Positions 17,737-64,000 of a DNA stretch of 64,000 nucleotides are shown one piece after another. This stretch comes from a virus: positions 1-64,000 of IMG/VR virus record IMGVR_UViG_3300019757_000007; one strand, given 5' to 3'. Each line of letters opens with the position of its first letter. Position 1 is the stretch's first letter. Both the position numbers and the translations under genes were made by a program. The notes under the pieces are model-generated. The model was not told the DNA's origin and ran no database searches. It saw only the letters and a list, made by a program, of their open reading frames with translations.

Positions 17737-19809
17737 TTAATCTATAATAATATTTGCTTCGAGCAATTCCTGTTCCGCTTCTAATTTTCTAGCAGCTATT
17801 TCATCTTCTGTTAAAAATTCCATACCAATCATCTTCAATGCATTATTGATAGTTTTTTTGGTATTACTTTCATATCTTTCTTTCATTTGATATTCGCCAT
17901 CTTTAATAATTTTCATTAAAAACGATTCTTTATCTTCCATACTATCCGATTTAAAAGTAAATAACTCTTTTAAGATATTGTTATTTTCTTTATGAGATAA
18001 TAAAGCAGCCGTTGTTTGCCAAGAAATATGTTGACCACCTTGCTTCTTTCTACCTCTTGTTGGTTGACCAGTAGTTTTACTATAACTATTAGTAAACGCA
18101 ATAGCATTATATTTAGAATTACTTGTATGATATAATTTGCTTAGGTAGTTTTCTCCACAATAACATTCAATTTCTTGTTCATAAAAACTATCTATTTTAC
18201 TTGATTTAAAGATAGTACTTTCAAACCCAAGATAAGTTCTTAAGTACATCATTAATTTATTTTCAAATTTAATTTTACTTTTTGAATTTAGATCTATTCC
18301 AAATCTTTCTCCGTACTGAGCAATAAAATCTTCATAATACTCAGCATAAGTAATATCATTAAAGTTTCTAAAATAAAAATATAATTTATCTTTGACTACA
18401 TTTTCTCTTAATTCACTTAAGTTATTAGATAAAATTTCTTTAACTGATAAGTAATATTCTTCATCAGTTCTTTTAATTAAATTTTCATTAACGAATTCAA
18501 TTCTTTCTTTAAAATCAAGTAAATCATCAGCACCTTCTATATCTCGAACAATCTTACTCATAGCTAATTCAAAAATACTTCCCCAGTTATTTCTACCAAA
18601 GATTCCTAATGGATTAAATATCATATCAAATGGTAAACCAGTCTTTGGATCTTTAGGCATTAAATCATCTGGAATAACTAAACCAACCACACCTTTACCA
18701 GCATATAAGTTAGTGAACTTATCTCCTCTAGAAGTATTCTCAGTATAACTAGTATCAACCTCAATAATATAATCAATATCATCTGGATCTAAATTATAAT
18801 TATCTCTCATATCATTTAGAACTGATTTAGGTACAGTTTCCATACTAATATATTGATTATATAAAGTATCACTTAATTCATCAATTTTATCTTGAGGTAG
18901 TTTTAAAGAAGTAAAACATTTAGTTAAATCTTCTTTAGTAGTTTTTTGCGAATTGTCGTAAAATTCTAATTCATCAATAAGTTCTTTTGTATAAAGATAA
19001 GCTTCTCTATTTTCATTAAAAGTTTTTTTAGTAATAGTATGTACTCTGATGTTATCTACAGTACCACCTTGAATACCTTTAAAACTTTTAGTATAATATT
19101 TTGATTCTGTATGTTCATCTAAATTAATTACTTCCGTTAAGAAGAATTCAGATGCATCTATCATATAGTAACTTAAAATGTTTTCAGTATTTAATTTATC
19201 CCCTAATTTAGGTAAATAATCAATACCATTTTTTAAGAATCTCATCTGTTTAGTAACTGGAATAAACATCTTATCGCTATATTCTATTTGAGTTTTCTTA
19301 CTAAATGATTCAGAAATAACAACAGCATCATCAGCCGCGTATCCAAAGAAACTACTAAATAAAATATTCGCTCTATATCCAATTCTCGGCATTTTAATTT
19401 CTGGCAGCATATTAGTATAATCAAATAATAAAGCCCCTTTCTTAAAACTCTTATATTCATCAGCAATACAATATTTTAAACTAAGACTATTATTAATTAA
19501 TTTTTTATGACCAGGTACTTGTTTAAATATCATTCTCTTTTCAGTAGTATAATATAATATAAGTATTTCTTTTTGATAGAATAAAACTATTCCGTCATCT
19601 TCTGCAATTTCCGAATAAGGAGAATTGATTTCTGATAATGAACTATAGTATTTATCAATAACAATAGGTGTTTCCGTTTTTTTAGATACAACTACTTGGG
19701 TTAGCTGTTTAGAAGCCATTTGCAATCTGCTTGGATCTACATTATTAGCAAATGGTACGAATGTTTCTATTTGTGGACTAAACAATACTACATTTTTATC
19801 TTGTTTCAT
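17737..19809 (-). CDS. multisubunit RNA polymerase set A, beta C-terminal half
   Basis: PFANNVDPSRLQMASKQ (cf. PFLEHDDANRALMGANMQ), GYAADDAVVISE, GDKFTNLYAGKGVV, DMIFNPLG, KLYH, TGQPTRGRKKQGGQ. Confidence 0.9.
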   Translation of the reverse strand: MKQDKNVVLFSPQIETFVPFANNVDPSRLQMASKQLTQVVVSKKTETPIVIDKYYSSLSEINSPYSEIAEDDGIVLFYQKEILILYYTTEKRMIFKQVPGHKKLINNSLSLKYCIADEYKSFKKGALLFDYTNMLPEIKMPRIGYRANILFSSFFGYAADDAVVISESFSKKTQIEYSDKMFIPVTKQMRFLKNGIDYLPKLGDKLNTENILSYYMIDASEFFLTEVINLDEHTESKYYTKSFKGIQGGTVDNIRVHTITKKTFNENREAYLYTKELIDELEFYDNSQKTTKEDLTKCFTSLKLPQDKIDELSDTLYNQYISMETVPKSVLNDMRDNYNLDPDDIDYIIEVDTSYTENTSRGDKFTNLYAGKGVVGLVIPDDLMPKDPKTGLPFDMIFNPLGIFGRNNWGSIFELAMSKIVRDIEGADDLLDFKERIEFVNENLIKRTDEEYYLSVKEILSNNLSELRENVVKDKLYFYFRNFNDITYAEYYEDFIAQYGERFGIDLNSKSKIKFENKLMMYLRTYLGFESTIFKSSKIDSFYEQEIECYCGENYLSKLYHTSNSKYNAIAFTNSYSKTTGQPTRGRKKQGGQHISWQTTAALLSHKENNNILKELFTFKSDSMEDKESFLMKIIKDGEYQMKERYESNTKKTINNALKMIGMEFLTEDEIAARKLEAEQELLEANIIID

Positions 19810-23433: not shown

Positions 23434-24301
23434 TTACTTCCTTTATTTTACAAGTACTTGGATACTCTAATACACCCTTTTCTTTATTAATAAATTTAAT
23501 ATCTAAACCATTATTCGTTATAATTTCCCAACCAGTTTTTTTAGATACTATGAAAATATTACAATATAAGGTTTTATTATTTTTAAAATTTTGTTGATTA
23601 TAAGATACTATTTTATTATAATCGCTGTTCTGTTTAGCTATAAAAAAACTAAAAATACTAATAGTTAAAAATAGTATAAAACCAAAAATAATATTATTTC
23701 TTTTTTCTAATTTTTTTAACTTTTCTTCCTCCTCAGAATAATCTTCAACTATTCTTTCTCTATTAGCCGATTTAATTAGCTCTTTTAATTCTTTTTTATC
23801 TTCTAAATTCATTTACTTCCTTTTCTTTGTGCTACATAAATAATACATAATAACTCACAAAATAAATATAGTAAAATAAAGTAGCAAATGCTACTTTATC
23901 TGCTTCTGTTTTAAAATGTTTCGTTAATGTTCTATCAGAATATAATAATAGTAGAATAATATATAATATAAATAATATAAAAATACTGATAATAAAACCA
24001 GTTATTTGTAATAATCCACTTACTATTACTAATAAAAATAATAGTACTATATAAATATTATGAAATACTTTAATTAAAACTTTAAATAATTTCATTCCCA
24101 TATCGTAAATATACTAACATATTCTACTATTCCCATTAAAATTAGTAGGCATATACATTCTATTGGACTAATGTCATTTAAATAATGATTTTCATTCATG
24201 AATAGAGCCATAAAGAAGAAAGTTATTATTCCAAATGCGACTATTCCTATTGTTGATTGAAAATACATACCGAAGATATCTCCGGTTAAGAACGCTTCCA
24301 T
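23420..24301 (-). CDS. three small membrane proteins (23420-23812, 23832-24101, 24092-24301)
   Basis: Each has hydrophobic segments. Confidence 0.6.
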
Positions 24302-26307
24302 TAGTAGTAGATATCTAAGATATCATTATACATATGAGTAGTTCCTTCGCTAAATTTTGCTTTATAAACATTTGAAATAGCTCTATTACTAAAGTTATAA
24401 AATATTGATAATTTAGGATCTAACTGCTCAATTACATTTTTCAATGCTACCTGTTTAACTATCTCTTTATCACTATATCTAATTAATAATCCATCTTCAT
24501 CATAGAATAATAATGATAAAATCATTTCAAAATAAATACTAAGAATATTATTTTGAGTAATTACTTCTACTAGATTACCATAAATATCGTTAATACTTCT
24601 AAGAGCATCATCTTTTCTATTTTTATCAATTAAAGAAACAATTCCATTTAGAATCTTAACAGAATCATCATTAAATGGTAATTCATTTACAGTAATAGTT
24701 AATACTTCTTTATTATTTTCTTTATCTTCATGTGTATCTAAAGTAATATGTTCTTCATTTGGATATTTCTTAGCTAAATAACCTTTGATATAATCTATAT
24801 CTTCCGGTGCTCCAACTATTGAGTCTCCACCTACTACAGTTGATCTCATAAATATTTTAGATATTTCTCTATCTTCCTCAGTAATAAAAGCTCCACCAAA
24901 GTGATGCGTTCTAAGAACAGATTGAATAATACCTTCCGCAATATAAGAACCAAGACTAGCTCCAACATGTTTACTTGTTGGTTGTTTACTACCAAAACAT
25001 TTTTTACAAATACCAAAACCATGAGTCTTACATCTAATAGGAGATCTTAATTTAATATCAGTTCCTATTAATTCAGTTTCTGTTCCAGTTAATTCTCTTT
25101 CTTCTGTTCCAGCATCATACCATCTATATTTTAAAGACATTAGATGATCTTTATCTAAAATAGTAAATTTCTCATAACTTTTATTTTCATGAGATATATC
25201 TTCTTGACAATCTTCGATATCAATTCTAAAATTTAAAATACCAGTACTAAAGAAGAATTTTCTTTGTAGTTCTCCACCCTTTGGAATAGCATCCTGTCTT
25301 TGCATTAATGCTAGTCTAGCTGAATCTCCAGTACCAAAGTACTCTTCTTGAGTTAATCCATCAAGTAATGAATTTTCTATATTTCTAGGAAAAGCCTTTC
25401 CATAAATATCTGTTGGAATACCTGTATTACTAGCTGCTTTAAGTAACTGAACTGATTTCAGTCTAGCTCCAGAATCATAAACCTTATCTAGAATATTTTC
25501 TTTATCTTTTTCAACCTCTGGTCTAATAAAGTTTTCGAAAAGAACTAGATTTTGATGGAAAGCTAAATATGGTTCTACTTGAATCATATTCTTTTTGTAT
25601 TCCTCAATAGCATCGCTTCGTACACTAAAATCATCTAATTTAAAACTTGGATTACAGCTACTAATAACTGTTCCTACTTCTAAAAATAATTTATTTAACT
25701 CATGAACCCAATTATAAAATTGATTTTTATCTTTAGTGAATTCGATCTTTTTCCAAAAATCATAAGTCATTTTCATAAGATTCTTTTTATTTAAAGCTAC
25801 TCTATTTGTATAATAAACTTTAAATTTATCATCAATATGAACTTCTTCATTATGAACTTCCTGATTTTCATCCCATTCAGTATCATTTAAACTTCTATTA
25901 ATTAACCATTCAGTTAAATGAAGACCATCCTCGTTACCTTGAATAGGAAGTTGTTCTATATTAATAATTAATTTACCAGCTGAGATATCTTCGATATTAA
26001 TATATTTTTCTCTTAACTCTGCAAAATCTTTTACAGTTACCTTTGTACATTCATTATTTTCAATATTATCTAACATAATTTTTGTATACATATAAGAAGC
26101 ATAAATACTCTCATGTTCATAACTGAACAGTAAAGAATCTCTATGTTCGAATTCCACTAAATTATTTACGAAATGATCGTGGAAATCTTCTCTTGCTTGT
26201 TTTGAATGAAGTGCGACAGAAATCATAGTATCACCATCATAATCATGGTTCGTAAATTGAGAAACATTACTAGATATTTCTTTTACTCTATTTCTTTTTA
26301 TTTGCAA
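24301..26307 (-). CDS. multisubunit RNA polymerase set A, beta' C-terminal part with catalytic motif
   Basis: NHDYDGD at residues ~20-26, SGAR, GLTQEEYF, GELQRK, LRSPIRC, CKKCFG, trigger-loop QSVLRTHH; TTG start with AAGGA RBS. Confidence 0.9.
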   Translation of the reverse strand: MQIKRNRVKEISSNVSQFTNHDYDGDTMISVALHSKQAREDFHDHFVNNLVEFEHRDSLLFSYEHESIYASYMYTKIMLDNIENNECTKVTVKDFAELREKYINIEDISAGKLIINIEQLPIQGNEDGLHLTEWLINRSLNDTEWDENQEVHNEEVHIDDKFKVYYTNRVALNKKNLMKMTYDFWKKIEFTKDKNQFYNWVHELNKLFLEVGTVISSCNPSFKLDDFSVRSDAIEEYKKNMIQVEPYLAFHQNLVLFENFIRPEVEKDKENILDKVYDSGARLKSVQLLKAASNTGIPTDIYGKAFPRNIENSLLDGLTQEEYFGTGDSARLALMQRQDAIPKGGELQRKFFFSTGILNFRIDIEDCQEDISHENKSYEKFTILDKDHLMSLKYRWYDAGTEERELTGTETELIGTDIKLRSPIRCKTHGFGICKKCFGSKQPTSKHVGASLGSYIAEGIIQSVLRTHHFGGAFITEEDREISKIFMRSTVVGGDSIVGAPEDIDYIKGYLAKKYPNEEHITLDTHEDKENNKEVLTITVNELPFNDDSVKILNGIVSLIDKNRKDDALRSINDIYGNLVEVITQNNILSIYFEMILSLLFYDEDGLLIRYSDKEIVKQVALKNVIEQLDPKLSIFYNFSNRAISNVYKAKFSEGTTHMYNDILDIYY

Positions 26308-28011: not shown

Positions 28012-29496
28012 TTATATTTCCTCAGCTTCTAAAGCTTGTATTTTTGTGTTGTAAATTTTTCTTACGGCCATTTTCATATTATTTAAATAAATTTTGGAAA
28101 AAGCAGAACCTTTCTCTTGTAACGCTCTGACATAATCAGGTGCTTCATTCATTGCTTCGAAATAATATTTTCTGTATTCATCCGGAATACCTATTTCTGT
28201 AAACTCAGGTATTTGATAAATATCATCCTCTGAATCCCCGTAGCTTCGAGCTATAGAATAACAACTACTACTAAACTTCCATAAGTTAGGTTGTCTTTCA
28301 GTAAGTACCCTAAAATCTTTCATTTTCTTTTCTAAGAAGTTTTTAAAATCTTCATCAGGTAAAGTAATTTCAAAATTATTATTGAACCTATCATAGATAT
28401 ATTGGATATATTCCACCACGTCAAAACTATTTTGAGAACCATCCTCATCAATAATACTAATCTCTTTATCTTCATATTCTACGAATAAATATCTTAGTAA
28501 TTCTGGTAAAAATATTTTCTTAATACTTTCTTCTGGTAAACCTAATTGATATGGTTTTAAAACTGGATTTGGAATAATAACAGCTCTCTGACTAAATTCT
28601 ACTGTTTTTCCAGTTAAAGATTCTCTTACATAATTATCTTTCTTTTGAAAATTAAATTGTAATATTTCGTGATATACATCATCAATACTTTGCTGATACT
28701 TATAAACAGTATTACCAAAAAAATCAGAATTTGTATTATAAAGATTATCAAGAACAGAAGTCCCTTTGGAAATATTTTTAAGTATTTCAATATAAGCCTT
28801 TGTAATTGGATGTGGTAAAATCTTAGTATTACTAATTTTTACTACCTGTCTACTATTTGGAGGAGTTACTAAAATATAATTTAAGAAAACATATTTTAAA
28901 TAATCTTCTTTAATACTACCAGTTAAATGATGTCGGTACTTCCATTCTACTGGAATTCCTTCCTCAGGTGGTTTTGCCATTAAATCATGCAATAAAAAAA
29001 ACAAGTCCTTTAAGGAATTAATATCAAAAACTGGATGATCAATAAAATCTTTATCACCTTCCGCTATTTTAGTACTTTTGATTAACTTATATTTCTTAAG
29101 ATGGAAATAATAAGGTGCTTCTTTATTACTATTATATGCATGTTTTGATAAAATATTTTTAATACTATTATGACCGAAAATATCTTGTAAAGCATTCTTA
29201 AAATCGGGGTTTACTATAAAGATACCAGCGGGTAACATTATTTTAGCGAATTGAATATTTCTAGATTCATTCTTAGAACATTTTACATTACAGTTTGTAC
29301 ATACTTTACTAGCATTTATTTTGCCAAATACTTTTCCACACTGACATTTATATATCTTTTCTGGGCCAAAAATTTGCTCCGAATAGAGCCCATCTTTAGT
29401 AAAAGTATCATGTTTGTTACTTGTAAAAATACTTGGGTTAGTGATTTCTTCTAAATCGTCGACACCAGCGTATTCCTTAAAATTAAGTACTATCAT
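28012..29496 (-). CDS. multisubunit RNA polymerase set A, beta' N-terminal part
   Basis: DGLYSEQIFGP, Zn finger CQCG..CTNC, VTPPNSR, GKTVEFSQRAVI, LGLP, RQPNLW. Confidence 0.9.
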   Translation of the reverse strand: MIVLNFKEYAGVDDLEEITNPSIFTSNKHDTFTKDGLYSEQIFGPEKIYKCQCGKVFGKINASKVCTNCNVKCSKNESRNIQFAKIMLPAGIFIVNPDFKNALQDIFGHNSIKNILSKHAYNSNKEAPYYFHLKKYKLIKSTKIAEGDKDFIDHPVFDINSLKDLFFLLHDLMAKPPEEGIPVEWKYRHHLTGSIKEDYLKYVFLNYILVTPPNSRQVVKISNTKILPHPITKAYIEILKNISKGTSVLDNLYNTNSDFFGNTVYKYQQSIDDVYHEILQFNFQKKDNYVRESLTGKTVEFSQRAVIIPNPVLKPYQLGLPEESIKKIFLPELLRYLFVEYEDKEISIIDEDGSQNSFDVVEYIQYIYDRFNNNFEITLPDEDFKNFLEKKMKDFRVLTERQPNLWKFSSSCYSIARSYGDSEDDIYQIPEFTEIGIPDEYRKYYFEAMNEAPDYVRALQEKGSAFSKIYLNNMKMAVRKIYNTKIQALEAEEI

Positions 29497-56881: not shown

Positions 56882-58429
56882 ATGTGGATATATAAAAATA
56901 AAGTAATAACAGAAATACCACCAGAGGCAATATCTTTTACATATAAAATAACTAGATTAAATATAGAGGATGATAATACAAGCCCAATTTATTATATAGG
57001 AAAAAAGAATTTTTATAGAAAATCAAGAAAAAAAATATTAGAATCGGATTGGATGGAGTATTATGGTTCTTCTGAATGGTTAAAGGAACATGTTAAAAAA
57101 TATGGTTCTGATAATTTTGAAAGAGAAATATTAGAAATATGTTTTTCTAAATCCGAGGCTACTTATAAAGAGGTTAAACTATTAATAGAGAACGAGGTTC
57201 TTGAAGTAGATCATACTAATAAAATGAAAAAATTATATTATAATCTAAGTATTCTTGGAAGATATTCTACGAATAAATTTTTTACCAAATCAGATTTAGA
57301 AAAATTAAGTTATTATAAAAAACAACCGGATAAATATATAGATAGATTTGCTGTAAATAATGGAGTATCTACTAGATTTTTAAACTCGGAACTTTACGAT
57401 ATAGAGGAATTTTTATTGGAGAACCCAGAATGGACTTTAGGTACTGGAATAACACAAAAATATAAAGATATGATTTGTTGTACTGATGGTATAGAAAATA
57501 TATATATAGAAAAATATAATATTGATACTTTTCTTGAAGAAAATAAATTATTTTATAAAGGTAGTAAATTTAAAGGAAAATATAAAAGAATTAATAATGG
57601 AATCGAAGAAAGAAGAATTCCTATCAATGATGTTTTACCGGAAGGATTTGTACTAGGTGGAATAGTCAATATTGATTATAATAATAAAATAAGATTAATT
57701 CATTATAAAAAATACACAACTATAACCATACCTGACTACCATAAGGATTCTTATTTAGAAGATGGTTGGGAAATATGTCCAGATGATTTTAATATTTCTA
57801 CTTTCTCTAGATGGATAAATAAGGATTCTATAAATAAAAAAATAAAATTATCGGAAATTAATTCCTATCTAACAGATGGTTGGGAATTAGGAAGATATAA
57901 TAATTATAATAAAAATAAGGTATCTATAGTTAAGGATGAGGAAATTAAATATATATCTATAGATGATATCGAATCGTATATAAAAGATGGGTGGATTCTA
58001 GGTGGGAAAAAAATTGGTTCTTTAAAAGAGAGAAATTTAGTATTAGTTAGTGATAATAAAAATAATAAAAAAACTATCCCTATTAATAATCTAAAAGATT
58101 TTTTATCAAAAAATCCAGAATGGAAAGAAGGATTTACCCCAAAACATAAATTTAATACAAAAAATCAAGTATTTGTATATGATATTACTAAAGATAATTT
58201 ACCTCTTATAGTTACTCCAGAAGAATATAAAAATAATAAAAATTTAGTTCTTAGAAACACGGTACAATTACAAAAGAAAAAAGGGTTAACTAAAACAGAA
58301 ATAAATAGAATAAATAAATATTATCTTGAGGTATATCCAAAAAGAAGAAAAATCCCAACTTATAAATATCATAATTCAACCGTAGATAAAATATTAAAAG
58401 ATATTGAGGAGTATAGATATGGTAAATAG
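56882..58429 (+). mobile_element. GIY-YIG (Seg-like) homing endonuclease with repeated GWxLG DNA-binding modules
   Basis: FTYKIT..YYIGKK, YYGSS, YGSDNFEREIL, YYN; about seven C-terminal repeats ending (G/E)WxxG or a variant. Confidence 0.8.
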
Positions 58430-59019: not shown

Positions 59020-59095
59020 TAATGATATATTAATGTATATAATATCATTATATTATCAACAAATGGATACTATAATATTATATATGGAGTTAAAG

Positions 59096-59479
59096 ATGAA
59101 GAAAATAAATGAATTAAATGTATTGGTAGTAGACGATTCTAAAACAATTTGTAGAATTAATAAAATGATAGTTACTCAAATGGGAGTAAATAATTGTGAT
59201 ACAGCAGAAGATGGTTCTGTGGGATTAAAATTATTTATGAAAAATGATTACGACTTAGTACTATCAGATATTAATATGCCAGTAATGAATGGTTTTGAGT
59301 TCGTTGCCGAAATACGTAAAAGAAAATCAAAAGATGAATGTCCGGTATTTATGATTACTACAGAGGGTGGCAAACAAGAAGTACTTAGAGCTCTAAAATT
59401 AGGAGCAAATAATTATTTAGTTAAACCATTAGATAAAGATAATTTAATACAGAAAATAGAAGATTTATACCAAGCTTAA
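59096..59479 (+). CDS. cheY: CheY-like single-domain response regulator
   Basis: VLVVDDS, phospho-acceptor SDINMPVMNG, MITTEGGK, GANNYLVKP; GGAG RBS before ATG 59096. Confidence 0.88.
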   Translation: MKKINELNVLVVDDSKTICRINKMIVTQMGVNNCDTAEDGSVGLKLFMKNDYDLVLSDINMPVMNGFEFVAEIRKRKSKDECPVFMITTEGGKQEVLRALKLGANNYLVKPLDKDNLIQKIEDLYQA

Positions 59480-61062: not shown

Positions 61063-61065
61063 GAT

Positions 61066-61083
61066 AATCCCCTTCGGGGATTT
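61066..61083 (+). terminator. hairpin/terminator
   Basis: AATCCCC-TTCG-GGGATT. Confidence 0.65.
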
Positions 61084-61183
61084 CCTGTCGTAGTTAAAAC
61101 TACACTTTACTTTAAAATAACTCCGAACTAAAGATAGTATTAATAGATATTATAGGCTATAATAAAAAGAAAAGGAAATAAAA

Positions 61184-62524
61184 ATGCAGAAATTGCACAA
61201 TACAAAAATTGAAAATAATCGTACGATATTGGATATAGAAAATAGATTTGAAAGTGTCGGTGAAGATGGTAAGTTGATTAGTCAAGAAACTATTAACATG
61301 GTAGAACATACAGTACAAGATCAATATCAGGTACTTTCTAAAAATGATTTTGGTAAAACCCCACAGAGAATTAATATTGGATTTTTTAATAAGAAAACTG
61401 ATTTTAGAGTATCTGGTAAAGATAGTATAATTGCTTTTAATAAAGAAACGGCAGAAATTGTTTCACCAAGTATAGAAGAAATTAAAAATCATCCTTATAG
61501 ATATTTAATGATTTATAAATATCCTTTCTTTGATAATATTTGGAACGATGAAATAGAAATTAAATTAGAAGATATACCTAATGATTTTCATAAGATAATT
61601 CTAGATGAAAATTTTGGGGAATATTTAGGGAAGTTATTAAAAAAATTAACTCGAATGGTTCAAGTAGATGGAGTTACTGTAAATGATCTTGGAGTATTAG
61701 ATATCGATTTTAGAAGACGAAAAGTTCTAGAAACTATTATTCAAGTACAAGGTACTAATAAATTTAGTATTAATAAAAAGATATTACTTAATAGTAATCC
61801 AAGTTTCTTAATGGGAATTCTAGAAGGATTCTTTGATACTGAAAATACTAAATATTTTAATATTCCAGAAACTATTAATGTATATACTATAAGTACAATA
61901 TTTAATTTATTAAGTGCTTCATATAGTATTAGATTAAATAGAGAAAATGAAGTTAAAAAAGGTATCTTTACAGCTAGGTTTAAATTGCCTAATTCATTAA
62001 ATGAGTTTCCAAATAATTTAAATAATGATATTTTTAGAAAACACAAATACCTATTTTTACCAAACAAGGTAGGGGAATTTGATAATTTTAAAATTAAATT
62101 TTTAAAAGATTCTAGAAATTATATTAAAAATAATACACCAGAAATAACTCAAAAATATATTGAAAATGGTTTTACAGAAATGATGTATTTAGTTAATAAT
62201 GGATTAATAGAATTAATCCCTACTTGGGATTTAGTATTTAATAAAATTCCAGAAGAAGAAGCTAAAGAAAATATGATGTATGATTTAATTATGGAAAATG
62301 ATAAAGCTCATAATTTCCAATTAAATAATTTACCTATGTTACATAACTCTGATGGAGATATTATGGGGGTAATTGGATTATTTACAAAACAAGCTTGTGC
62401 TGATGCTAGAAAACATTTCTCTGCTGAGAATAAATTAAAATTTAAAGATCCAGTTAGTTCAAATGTTATGAACTGGGGAATTAAAACGGATGCCCAAGTT
62501 GGTTGGTATAATGCTACAAAATAA
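61184..62524 (+). CDS. intein (degenerate LAGLIDADG, no N-extein) fused to a 58-aa RNA polymerase beta' catalytic-loop fragment (set B)
   Basis: Blocks F/G MYDLIME..HNF..MLHN|S with the junction at 62347/62348; LAGLIDADG-like ILEGFFDTE. The extein SDGDIMGVIGLFTKQACADAR...DAQVGWYNAT aligns with beta' DGDQMAVHVPLSxEAxxEAR...DxVLGLYYMT. Confidence 0.82.
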   Translation: MQKLHNTKIENNRTILDIENRFESVGEDGKLISQETINMVEHTVQDQYQVLSKNDFGKTPQRINIGFFNKKTDFRVSGKDSIIAFNKETAEIVSPSIEEIKNHPYRYLMIYKYPFFDNIWNDEIEIKLEDIPNDFHKIILDENFGEYLGKLLKKLTRMVQVDGVTVNDLGVLDIDFRRRKVLETIIQVQGTNKFSINKKILLNSNPSFLMGILEGFFDTENTKYFNIPETINVYTISTIFNLLSASYSIRLNRENEVKKGIFTARFKLPNSLNEFPNNLNNDIFRKHKYLFLPNKVGEFDNFKIKFLKDSRNYIKNNTPEITQKYIENGFTEMMYLVNNGLIELIPTWDLVFNKIPEEEAKENMMYDLIMENDKAHNFQLNNLPMLHNSDGDIMGVIGLFTKQACADARKHFSAENKLKFKDPVSSNVMNWGIKTDAQVGWYNATK

Positions 62525-63480: not shown

Positions 63481-64000
63481 ATGTCACAAACTAACTCAAA
63501 TGTAGCTCCAGTTCAAACGGGTGTCCTAGCAGGGACTTCGAATATAAATCTAGAAGATGTACAAAATTATTGGAATAAGATAATTAAAACTGAACAACTT
63601 CAAGAGGACGAGACTGCAAGAATAGTTTTTCAAGCAAGAGTTAAACCTAATTTAGCAACACAGTATGAAAATTTAAAGAATTTTGAAATTACTGAAAGCA
63701 AACAATTAAGAACGGCGGTAGATGTTTTTAGTTATATTGAAGAAAAGACTAGATCTTTACCACATCATGATGTTGGTATAAGTATCAGTTCAGCCGTTTA
63801 TAATTACGATCCGACAAATGTTAATGAAAAAGGAAATGTAAAAGCTCCTAGTTATAATACTCTTAAAAAGATTAATTCATTAGTATTTGATATCGATGCT
63901 CACATTAAAGGGTCTAAAGAAAGATTTCATATTTATACTTTAGATGATAAATATATCCAAGTTGTTATTCTTAGATCATATATTGAAATTATGGATTTAT
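63481..64000 (+). CDS. probable primase-polymerase (AEP) N-terminus, truncated by window end
   Basis: AAGGA RBS; open frame MSQTNSNV... containing LVFDIDAH (hhDhD motif I). Confidence 0.45.
   Translation, partial: MSQTNSNVAPVQTGVLAGTSNINLEDVQNYWNKIIKTEQLQEDETARIVFQARVKPNLATQYENLKNFEITESKQLRTAVDVFSYIEEKTRSLPHHDVGISISSAVYNYDPTNVNEKGNVKAPSYNTLKKINSLVFDIDAHIKGSKERFHIYTLDDKYIQVVILRSYIEIMDL

Follow-up and report, generated by a model that had tools for sequence, protein, structure and literature searches.

How a multisubunit RNA polymerase (RNAP) may become active when the Mg-binding loop of its β′ subunit is divided between two genes is the question raised by an open reading frame (ORF) at positions 61184-62524 of a 64-kb DNA stretch of an uncultured jumbo phage (in the following called the window), which represents the first part of a single contig of 74,566 bp (IMG/VR record IMGVR_UViG_3300019757_000007). 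DNA of this phage was traced to three metagenome runs of microbial mats, and one of them may be the source. The genome carries two sets of RNAP genes, here called A and B, and the Mg loop of the set-B β′ subunit, corresponding to the motif NADFDGD, is split in such a way that GGD is encoded at the end of the N-terminal β′ part (β′-N) by a gene starting 6.8 kb downstream, and SDGD in the ORF at 61184-62524. We regard it as likely that this ORF encodes the C-terminal part (IntC) of an atypically split, cysteine-less class-1 intein located in the Mg loop of β′, with Ser as first residue of the intein and of the following extein (Ser1/Ser+1), and that it is trans-spliced with an N-terminal part (IntN) attached to β′-N. 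The active site of the polymerase can most likely form only once both proteins are joined.

Most of what had been read from this ORF in an initial annotation of the window holds up. Two in-frame stop codons are located 7 codons ahead of the start, and all three frames are closed within the 120-nt spacer at 61063-61183, so the ORF does begin as an intein without any N-extein; it also lacks the block A nucleophile, which is found as Ser1 on the partner protein. An own ribosome-binding site is present as proposed (Table 1), while the promoter-like region postulated along with it fared less well: the sequence TATAAT can be read at 61158-61163, yet a sigma-70 promoter scan called nothing immediately ahead of the start. 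Promoters of another type probably serve the polymerases of the phage. Blocks F and G at the end of IntC are intact, and the junction N388/S389 (here and below, the slash marks the border of intein and extein) falls between nucleotides 62347 and 62348, followed by 58 residues. These were correctly assigned to β′ from the Mg-loop motif onward, since they align with the region following the Mg loop in the set-A β′ of the same genome (NHDYDGDTM...) and with the C-terminus of a metagenomic single-chain homologue described below, P0141 (ORF residues 362-446, E 9e-9). The ORF and its surroundings also contain two near-identical short palindromes, AATCCCC TTC GGGGATT at 61066-61082, forming a GC hairpin after the upstream gene, and AATCCC TACTT GGGATT at 62215-62231 inside the IntC coding sequence.

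Table 1. Features of the IntC gene and of the genes connected with it. Positions refer to the window unless indicated otherwise.
Feature	Position	Strand	Basis and remarks
IntC + 58-aa β′ middle segment + stop codon	61184..62524	+	446 aa; 63 full-length homologues of the same architecture
IntC, residues 1-388: predicted Hint domain without first strand, with inserted LAGLIDADG-like domain	61184..62347	+	AF2, Foldseek, VIA-align
His42 codon, candidate NX-motif His of Ser1 inteins	61307..61309	+	invariant 63/63; predicted IntN interface
Block B equivalent VSGKDS, residues 76-81; His position taken by Asp80	61409..61426	+	alignment, co-fold
Decayed LAGLIDADG-like domain, ~residues 137-286	61592..62041	+	VIA-align to I-DmoI; BLASTP to P0144
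Blocks F and G (MYDLIME...HNF...LHN), ending with terminal Asn388	62276..62347	+	family conservation
C-extein SDGD...GWYNATK, 58 aa, with second and third catalytic Asp	62348..62521	+	conservation; set-A match
Shine-Dalgarno-like AAGGA, 7 nt ahead of ATG	61172..61176	+	read from sequence
β′-N+IntN, 442 aa	genome 69292-70620 (L001:9293-10621), outside window	+	L001 ORFs; β′-N family
C-terminal β′ part (β′-C), 423 aa	genome 70622-71893 (L001:10623-11894), outside window	+	Pfam Rpb1_5
Start of primase-helicase gene, running to genome 66591	63481..64000	+	Pfam Zn_ribbon_DnaG, DUF5906; between IntC gene and partner genes
Set-B β subunit, 1041 aa	53217..56342	+	PHROG RNAP beta families, Pfam Rpb2_6/Rpb2_3; syntenic with the split β′ genes

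The gene of β′-N provides the complementary half. Its barrel strand ends with ...IVPAFIYAPIGGD and is followed by SFSTNSYL... and altogether 50 residues up to the stop codon, which divides the protein into β′-N proper (residues 1-392, ending with ...PIGGD) and a putative IntN consisting of Ser393 and another 49 amino acids. A second β′-N gene ending with the first part of the loop, a Ser and an intein-like tail is what the initial annotation had predicted in the case of a split intein, except that the tail is longer than the 15-30 residues expected. The residues G391-D392-S393 are invariant in all 55 aligned β′-N homologues and are followed by tails of 45-95 amino acids, and none of these 55 proteins shows a DGD after GDS. 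The adjacent β′-C gene accounts for the part of β′ with bridge helix and trigger loop, as far as the motifs can be read from the sequence. Measured against the layout of E. coli β′, β′-N, the 58-aa piece and β′-C appear to cover the subunit once and without overlap. Among the three set-B β′ genes, only ORF 61184-62524 encodes the catalytic Asp pair of DGD, and it has to be regarded as their sole source because the 58-aa segment is missing from both β′-N and β′-C.

This arrangement is not confined to a single assembly. Relatives of the IntC ORF occur on ten independent IMG/VR contigs with the same gene start in all of them, which disposes of an assembly break upstream of 61184 as an explanation for the missing N-terminus. 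In seven of these contigs, the genes for β′-N and β′-C are found 3-7 kb downstream of the IntC gene on the same strand, and in an eighth record (G002) β′-N follows at a distance of 13 kb; four contigs (L003, L004, L009, and L011) show the set-B β gene upstream of the IntC gene. As the IntC gene precedes the β′-N gene, the gene order is permuted, with the C-terminal half ahead of the N-terminal one. In two relatives with near-complete genomes (100% and 97% complete), a β′-N gene of this type and an IntC gene are each present in exactly one copy. An intact set-B β′ with a DxDGD of its own, beside which the ORF would have to be seen as a leftover, was found neither in the 74.6 kb of this genome nor in these two relatives.

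The distribution and conservation of both genes were followed over a large set of metagenomic proteins. Neither the ORF nor its region was matched in 50,697 phage records (tblastn, megablast), scans of the 446-aa protein against Pfam and PHROGs yielded no useful match, and a profile search of the ORF family against PDB sequences returned a chance match only. A word-indexed search retrieved 20 metagenomic homologues with identities down to 29%, which agree with ORF 61184-62524 in length and layout, and an exhaustive profile search with the ORF family in 1.84 billion representative proteins produced 73 matches, the full-length ones all comprising 356-466 amino acids. An alignment of 63 full-length members was used for the conservation counts of IntC, and the partner family of β′-N+IntN consists of 56 members, 55 of which were aligned. 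As judged from these sequences, both gene families are clade-wide. In the 388 residues of IntC, the only invariant positions are His42, Asp367 of block F, and the terminal Asn388 (63/63 each), directly followed by the equally invariant S389, D390, G391, and D392 of the extein; Asn377 is present in 62 of the 63 proteins. On the other side, Ser1 (Ser393 of the partner), which is absent from ORF 61184-62524 itself, stands directly after GGD in 55/55 sequences. The block B equivalent VSGKDS lines up by eye with VSEDHS of a contiguous intein (P0144, see below) and has indeed lost its His, as had been suspected from the single sequence; this loss turned out to be common to the family and to contiguous alleles at the same site, whereas the adjacent Ser81 is kept in 62 of 63 members. 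The pattern indicates that selection has kept exactly the residues needed for splicing via oxyesters and has dropped the two 'helper' histidines of block B and the penultimate position.

The assignment to the inteins further rests on the predicted fold. A model of the ORF product, calculated with AlphaFold2 (AF2) from a 21-sequence alignment, reached a mean confidence (predicted local distance difference test, pLDDT) of 75.5, with values mostly above 80 for residues ~40-390 and disorder in the first 26 and the last ~55 residues. The best Foldseek matches of the model are all endonuclease-bearing inteins, namely TliVMA (E 5.8e-9), PhoVMA, PI-SceI, and PI-PfuI. With VIA-align, the model was superimposed on PI-SceI over 266 residues (Z 12.0, root-mean-square deviation 4.5) and on the mini-inteins AceL NrdHF, RadA, Aes123 PolB1, Npu DnaE, and Ssp DnaB over 111-129 residues (Z 8-9.8, spanning model residues ~16-390). 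These alignments start at model residues 16-20, which correspond to about residue 12 of the mini-inteins, residue 25 of PI-SceI and residue 44 of the VMA inteins (range 11-47). Because the similarity sets in only around residue 12 of the mini-inteins, IntC is predicted to be a Hint domain minus its first strand, with a LAGLIDADG-like domain inserted at the usual place.

The proposed decayed LAGLIDADG core is likewise recovered in the model, as seen from a match of residues 137-286 to I-DmoI (Z about 6) in addition to the whole-protein matches to PI-SceI and PI-PfuI, and residues 201-259 are similar to the LAGLIDADG_3 region of P0144 in a BLASTP comparison (E 0.003). Its first motif, FGEYLGKLLKK, is devoid of acidic residues, and the second one, ILEGFFDTEN, contains a Glu in the window protein at a column that varies across the family. 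The endonuclease motifs are thus decayed by sequence, without conservation of the catalytic acidic positions, and the domain itself is kept in every family member. While the structural comparisons identify both domains, scans with sequence-based hidden Markov models (HMMs) do not: the Pfam LAGLIDADG models give no match, and Intein_splicing (PF14890) shows no match to the window protein and sub-threshold ones with E<=0.01 to 2 of 21 relatives, the best of which (P0002, profile positions 95-155) scores 24.7 bits at a cut-off of 35.8.

If the two genes encode complementary intein parts, their products should associate, and this is what a co-fold suggested at the outset predicts. Residues 1-400 of the IntC protein and 381-442 of β′-N, both entered as alignments, were modeled in three runs together with three controls. 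The tail of the partner docks on the ORF product with ipSAE scores of 0.90, 0.90, and 0.86, compared to 0.00 for the best control. The partner pLDDT was 78 or higher, and the runs had at least 82% of their contacts in common. In the calibration of the method, 58 of 80 solved complexes and 2 of 110 mismatched pairs reached the mark used for calling an interaction, and part of the ipSAE may reflect likeness to solved split-intein structures. In the models, IntN residues 393-398 run antiparallel to IntC residues 72-77, a strand that continues into block B, and also contact block F (363-367) as well as block G with Ser+1 (386-389), an arrangement which looks like a complete intein active site. IntN residues 408-440 are in contact with the Hint N-lobe (118-130) and with residues 197-203 of the LAGLIDADG-like domain. 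The predicted contacts support docking of IntN and IntC by complementation into one Hint domain, and the one to the IntN tail may be a reason for keeping the LAGLIDADG-like domain.

Contiguous versions of an intein are known from the same site. Three metagenomic proteins of 604-632 amino acids (P0141-P0143) represent single-chain β′-N subunits with unsplit mini-inteins at the GGD/SDGD site, following the layout P(I/L)GGD/C or T, ~190 residues, and N/SDGD...YN(A/V)TK (YKITKD in P0143); in P0143 (616 aa), the intein starts with Thr in place of Cys or Ser. P0141 aligns with residues 5-397 of the β′-N of the window genome, placing PIGGDS over PIGGDC (E 8e-32), and its N-terminal part matches positions 2-130 of the 166 positions of Pfam Rpb1_2, which means that this domain is interrupted where NADFDGD belongs. 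The presence of these contiguous mini-inteins in related phages supports the view of an atypically split intein that rebuilds the sequence D-S-D-G-D. Moreover, the block-B His is missing from P0141-P0143 as well (SETNS, SDENS, and GARQS). As a polymerase with a contiguous intein needs splicing to work, this argues for the loss of the His being a trait of a working family rather than decay. A further contiguous intein is present in P0144, a phage β′ protein of 1170 amino acids, where a LAGLIDADG-containing intein with the block B sequence VSEDHS is located four residues further along the loop (GADFDGD/S...), so the Mg loop seems to be a repeated intein target. This intein appears to end with Asp rather than Asn, before Thr+1. 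A single-chain form of the endonuclease-bearing intein studied here was not retrieved at the GGD/SDGD site from the 1.84 billion proteins, where the profile search detected only the mini-intein alleles and one intein of a neighboring site, and we found no report of an intein in a phage RNAP β′ subunit or in the NADFDGD loop in the open-access literature.

The gene layout, the fold, the complementary partner, the predicted docking and the conservation pattern follow from the analyses described so far. That the parts are ligated, beyond association or cleavage, and which residues catalyze the single steps, is what we infer for the following scheme. The first gene would yield IntC (388 amino acids) together with the extein SDGD...GWYNATK, and the second one β′-N (1-392) together with IntN. 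The first IntN strand would insert beside the block-B strand of IntC and complete the Hint fold, and the rest of IntN would bind to the N-lobe of the Hint domain and to the LAGLIDADG-like domain. Ser393 would then undergo an N-O acyl shift, probably assisted by His42 rather than by a block-B His, Ser389 would attack the resulting ester, and Asn388 would cyclize. The expected product is a β′-N of 450 amino acids with the contiguous sequence G-G-D-S-D-G-D as equivalent of NADFDGD, which would finally assemble with β′-C and β.

The role suggested for His42 is based on PolB16 OarG, a split intein with Ser1 and Ser+1, which can do without its block-B His but requires a His further upstream, in the so-called NX motif (Pasch et al., 2023; PMC10189870). 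The NX motif contains a conserved His ~40 residues upstream of block B and near Ser1, usually after Lys or Arg, with a spacing of 41 residues to the block-B His in PolB16 OarG (PMC10189870). His42 precedes the block-B His column by 38 residues, forms part of the predicted interface with IntN, and follows a Lys or Arg in only 26 of the 63 members. It is a candidate for the NX-motif His and may assist Ser393 in place of the block-B His.

Several observations weigh against a splicing intein. The block-B His column (position 80) is occupied by Asp in the window protein and by His in only 8 of 63 members, the others showing N, K, D, S, E, or Q, while Pasch et al. saw the block-B His in every Ser1 intein they examined (PMC10189870). 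The penultimate His is not conserved either, being replaced by Lys in 47 proteins and present in 7 of the 63. Sequence HMMs from Pfam and PHROGs and the PDB profile fail to recognize the window protein as an intein, the co-fold of IntC and IntN is a model and not a measurement, and the search for another β′ covered 74.6 kb, although the protein is also recorded on a contig of 224.7 kb, so a further copy is possible. Finally, a decayed endonuclease domain of ~150 amino acids is retained under apparent selection, which splicing alone leaves unexplained.

The missing histidines speak in favor of a reaction stopping at cleavage, the second option of the initial annotation, as both of them normally help to coordinate the steps of splicing. 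The two parts would still dock, Asn388 would cyclize and the ester at Ser393 would be hydrolyzed, leaving β′-N with its end ...GGD and a free 58-aa peptide starting with SDGD side by side without a bond; PolB16 OarG indeed shows a sizeable C-cleavage side reaction (PMC10189870). We consider this outcome unlikely, because Ser1 of the partner and Ser+1 are both invariant: Ser+1 occurs in 63/63 members at a position where other β′ subunits, including that of set A (NHDYDGD), have Phe or Tyr, and a nucleophile at +1 is needed for ligation, but not for cleavage. In addition, P0141-P0143 agree with the split version in their junctions and in the missing His, and a nicked Mg-binding loop with charged termini would make an implausible catalytic center. 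The retained LAGLIDADG-like domain might point in another direction, namely to intein parts that have lost their chemistry and now hold β′-N and the 58-aa piece together as a lineage-specific, non-covalent adaptor domain that stays in the mature polymerase. Many non-catalytic positions are conserved down to 29% identity and the predicted interface of IntC and IntN is strong, but no intein residues other than the catalytic ones, namely Ser1, His42, Asp of block F, and the terminal Asn, are invariant. Moreover, the catalytic Asp residues of RNAP are positioned in a buried active center, which an insert of ~440 residues between the first and the second of them would be expected to occupy, and such an adaptor thus appears even less probable. 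A functionless, decaying remnant of an intein-containing β′ gene, which would account for the decayed endonuclease motifs, the missing block-B His and the lack of HMM matches, is hardly conceivable in view of an intact frame with conserved length and termini in 63 diverged members, the conserved gene order, the lack of another source of the 58-aa segment among the set-B β′ genes and the single copy in near-complete relatives. The reading of NSDGD as a degenerate but complete NADFDGD after a divergent barrel strand was rejected on account of the fold matches, the partner ending with GGD/S, and the contiguous alleles.

Trans-splicing therefore stays the preferred reading of ORF 61184-62524. More tentatively, and as a possibility rather than as an expectation, it may be extended to an AR9-like clade of uncultured jumbo phages in which trans-splicing is obligatory for building the catalytic center of the virion-type polymerase, His42 has taken over from the block-B His, the dead LAGLIDADG domain is kept as a dock for IntN, and maturation of the polymerase depends on the two separately transcribed genes, possibly also in its timing.

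Split inteins, including atypical ones with a short IntN, are already known (PMC10189870; PMC11766414). The closest functional parallel is PolB16 OarG, which is also naturally and atypically split into a short IntN and a large IntC, cysteine-less, and of the Ser1/Ser+1 type, and whose NX His has a candidate counterpart in the invariant His42 at a comparable distance from block B. However, its host protein is a PolB DNA polymerase instead of the RNAP β′ subunit, its IntN consists of 15 rather than 50 amino acids, its IntC has no endonuclease domain, and it keeps the block-B His lost in most members of the phage family; sequence similarity between the two inteins was not detected. The inteins AceL-TerL and GOS-TerL (IntN of 25 and 37 amino acids, respectively; PMC11766414) share the break near the intein N-terminus instead of at the endonuclease insertion point and likewise originate from phage or metagenome sources, but they reside in the large terminase subunit, are mini-inteins without endonuclease and use different nucleophiles. 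With the exception of the terminase case, the break of natural split inteins falls into the region of endonuclease insertion according to Dassa et al. (2009; PMC2677866). The 'fractured genes' described in that study resemble the present system in that essential phage-type genes are present as two ORFs rejoined by split inteins, with free-standing GIY-YIG and Vsr-like endonuclease genes nearby, just as a DUF559/Vsr-like gene precedes β′-N and a SegE-like gene follows β in our case. Their halves are adjacent and in N-to-C order, whereas the present halves occur in swapped order at a distance of 3-13 kb, are broken elsewhere and retain a LAGLIDADG-like domain inside IntC; an RNA polymerase is not among the cases reported (PMC2677866). 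The best structural matches, PI-SceI, PI-PfuI, and the Tli and Pho VMA inteins, show the same topology of a Hint domain with LAGLIDADG insertion, but are single-chain proteins with Cys1, a block-B His and active endonuclease motifs, as opposed to the missing first strand and decayed motifs of IntC. P0141-P0143 have the insertion site, the exteins, the YNATK end, and homologous blocks F and G in common with the split version, yet are unsplit with Cys1 or Thr1 and without endonuclease; P0144 differs by its position four residues downstream and keeps SEDH. The distinguishing features are the host site in the Mg loop of an RNAP, the permuted and distant genes, the 50-aa IntN, the LAGLIDADG-like domain inside IntC and the general loss of the block-B His.

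If splicing occurs as proposed, the active site of a multisubunit RNA polymerase would not be present in any single gene product, but would be made after translation, so that phage transcription would be controlled at an additional, new level. With >60 diverged members, the proteins would represent a large natural family of atypically split inteins without cysteine, and since most of these lack the block-B His, the NX-histidine mechanism proposed recently could be tested on them as on a natural experiment. They would also provide further candidates for redox-insensitive protein ligation tools. For annotation purposes, it should be noted that β′ of these phages is routinely mis-called, with the 446-aa gene being left without any family match.

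The closest cultured relatives of β′-N among the 50,697 phage records are found in AR9/PBS1, Listeria phage LPJP1, and Staphylococcus jumbo phages (~26% identity), and its IntN tail was never matched in these cultured jumbo phages. The match in AR9 is the gene annotated as virion-RNAP β′ N-terminus, and by this best match the set-B polymerase is classified as virion-type. The respective AR9 gene (KU878088.1 118211-123163) is itself interrupted by group I introns and annotated as joined from three pieces, with a VSR endonuclease of a group I intron; mobile elements thus interrupt the N-terminal virion-RNAP β′ gene in distant relatives, too. The set-A polymerase is encoded on the minus strand of the window (24301-26307, 28012-29496, and 17737-19809), and its β′ also consists of two gene products, the one with NHDYDGD being encoded at 24301-26307. 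The break is just upstream of the intact NHDYDGD, within ~15 residues of the position of the set-B split intein, and contains no intein. The set-A genes were rejected as partners of IntC, because the set-A β′ has its own NHDYDGD and its N-terminal part lacks an intein-like end.

The remaining genes of interest are located close to the set-B polymerase genes. A gene for a 246-aa protein outside the window (genome 68559-69299; L001:8560-9300, plus strand) overlaps the start of the β′-N gene and matches DUF559, which exhibits a Vsr-like endonuclease fold (22.4 bits, above the cut-off), and RAP/DUF2726; it probably encodes a free-standing homing endonuclease of the type associated with 'fractured genes'. 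A second free-standing homing endonuclease is probably represented by the 515-aa protein encoded just downstream of the set-B β gene (56882-58429, plus strand), which contains an N-terminal SegE-type GIY-YIG domain (E 1.6e-22), followed by several repeats each ending in GW/GF-x-L-G. Between this gene and the IntC ORF, a stand-alone response-regulator receiver domain without an output domain is encoded at 59033-59479 on the plus strand (Pfam Response_reg, E 1e-29).

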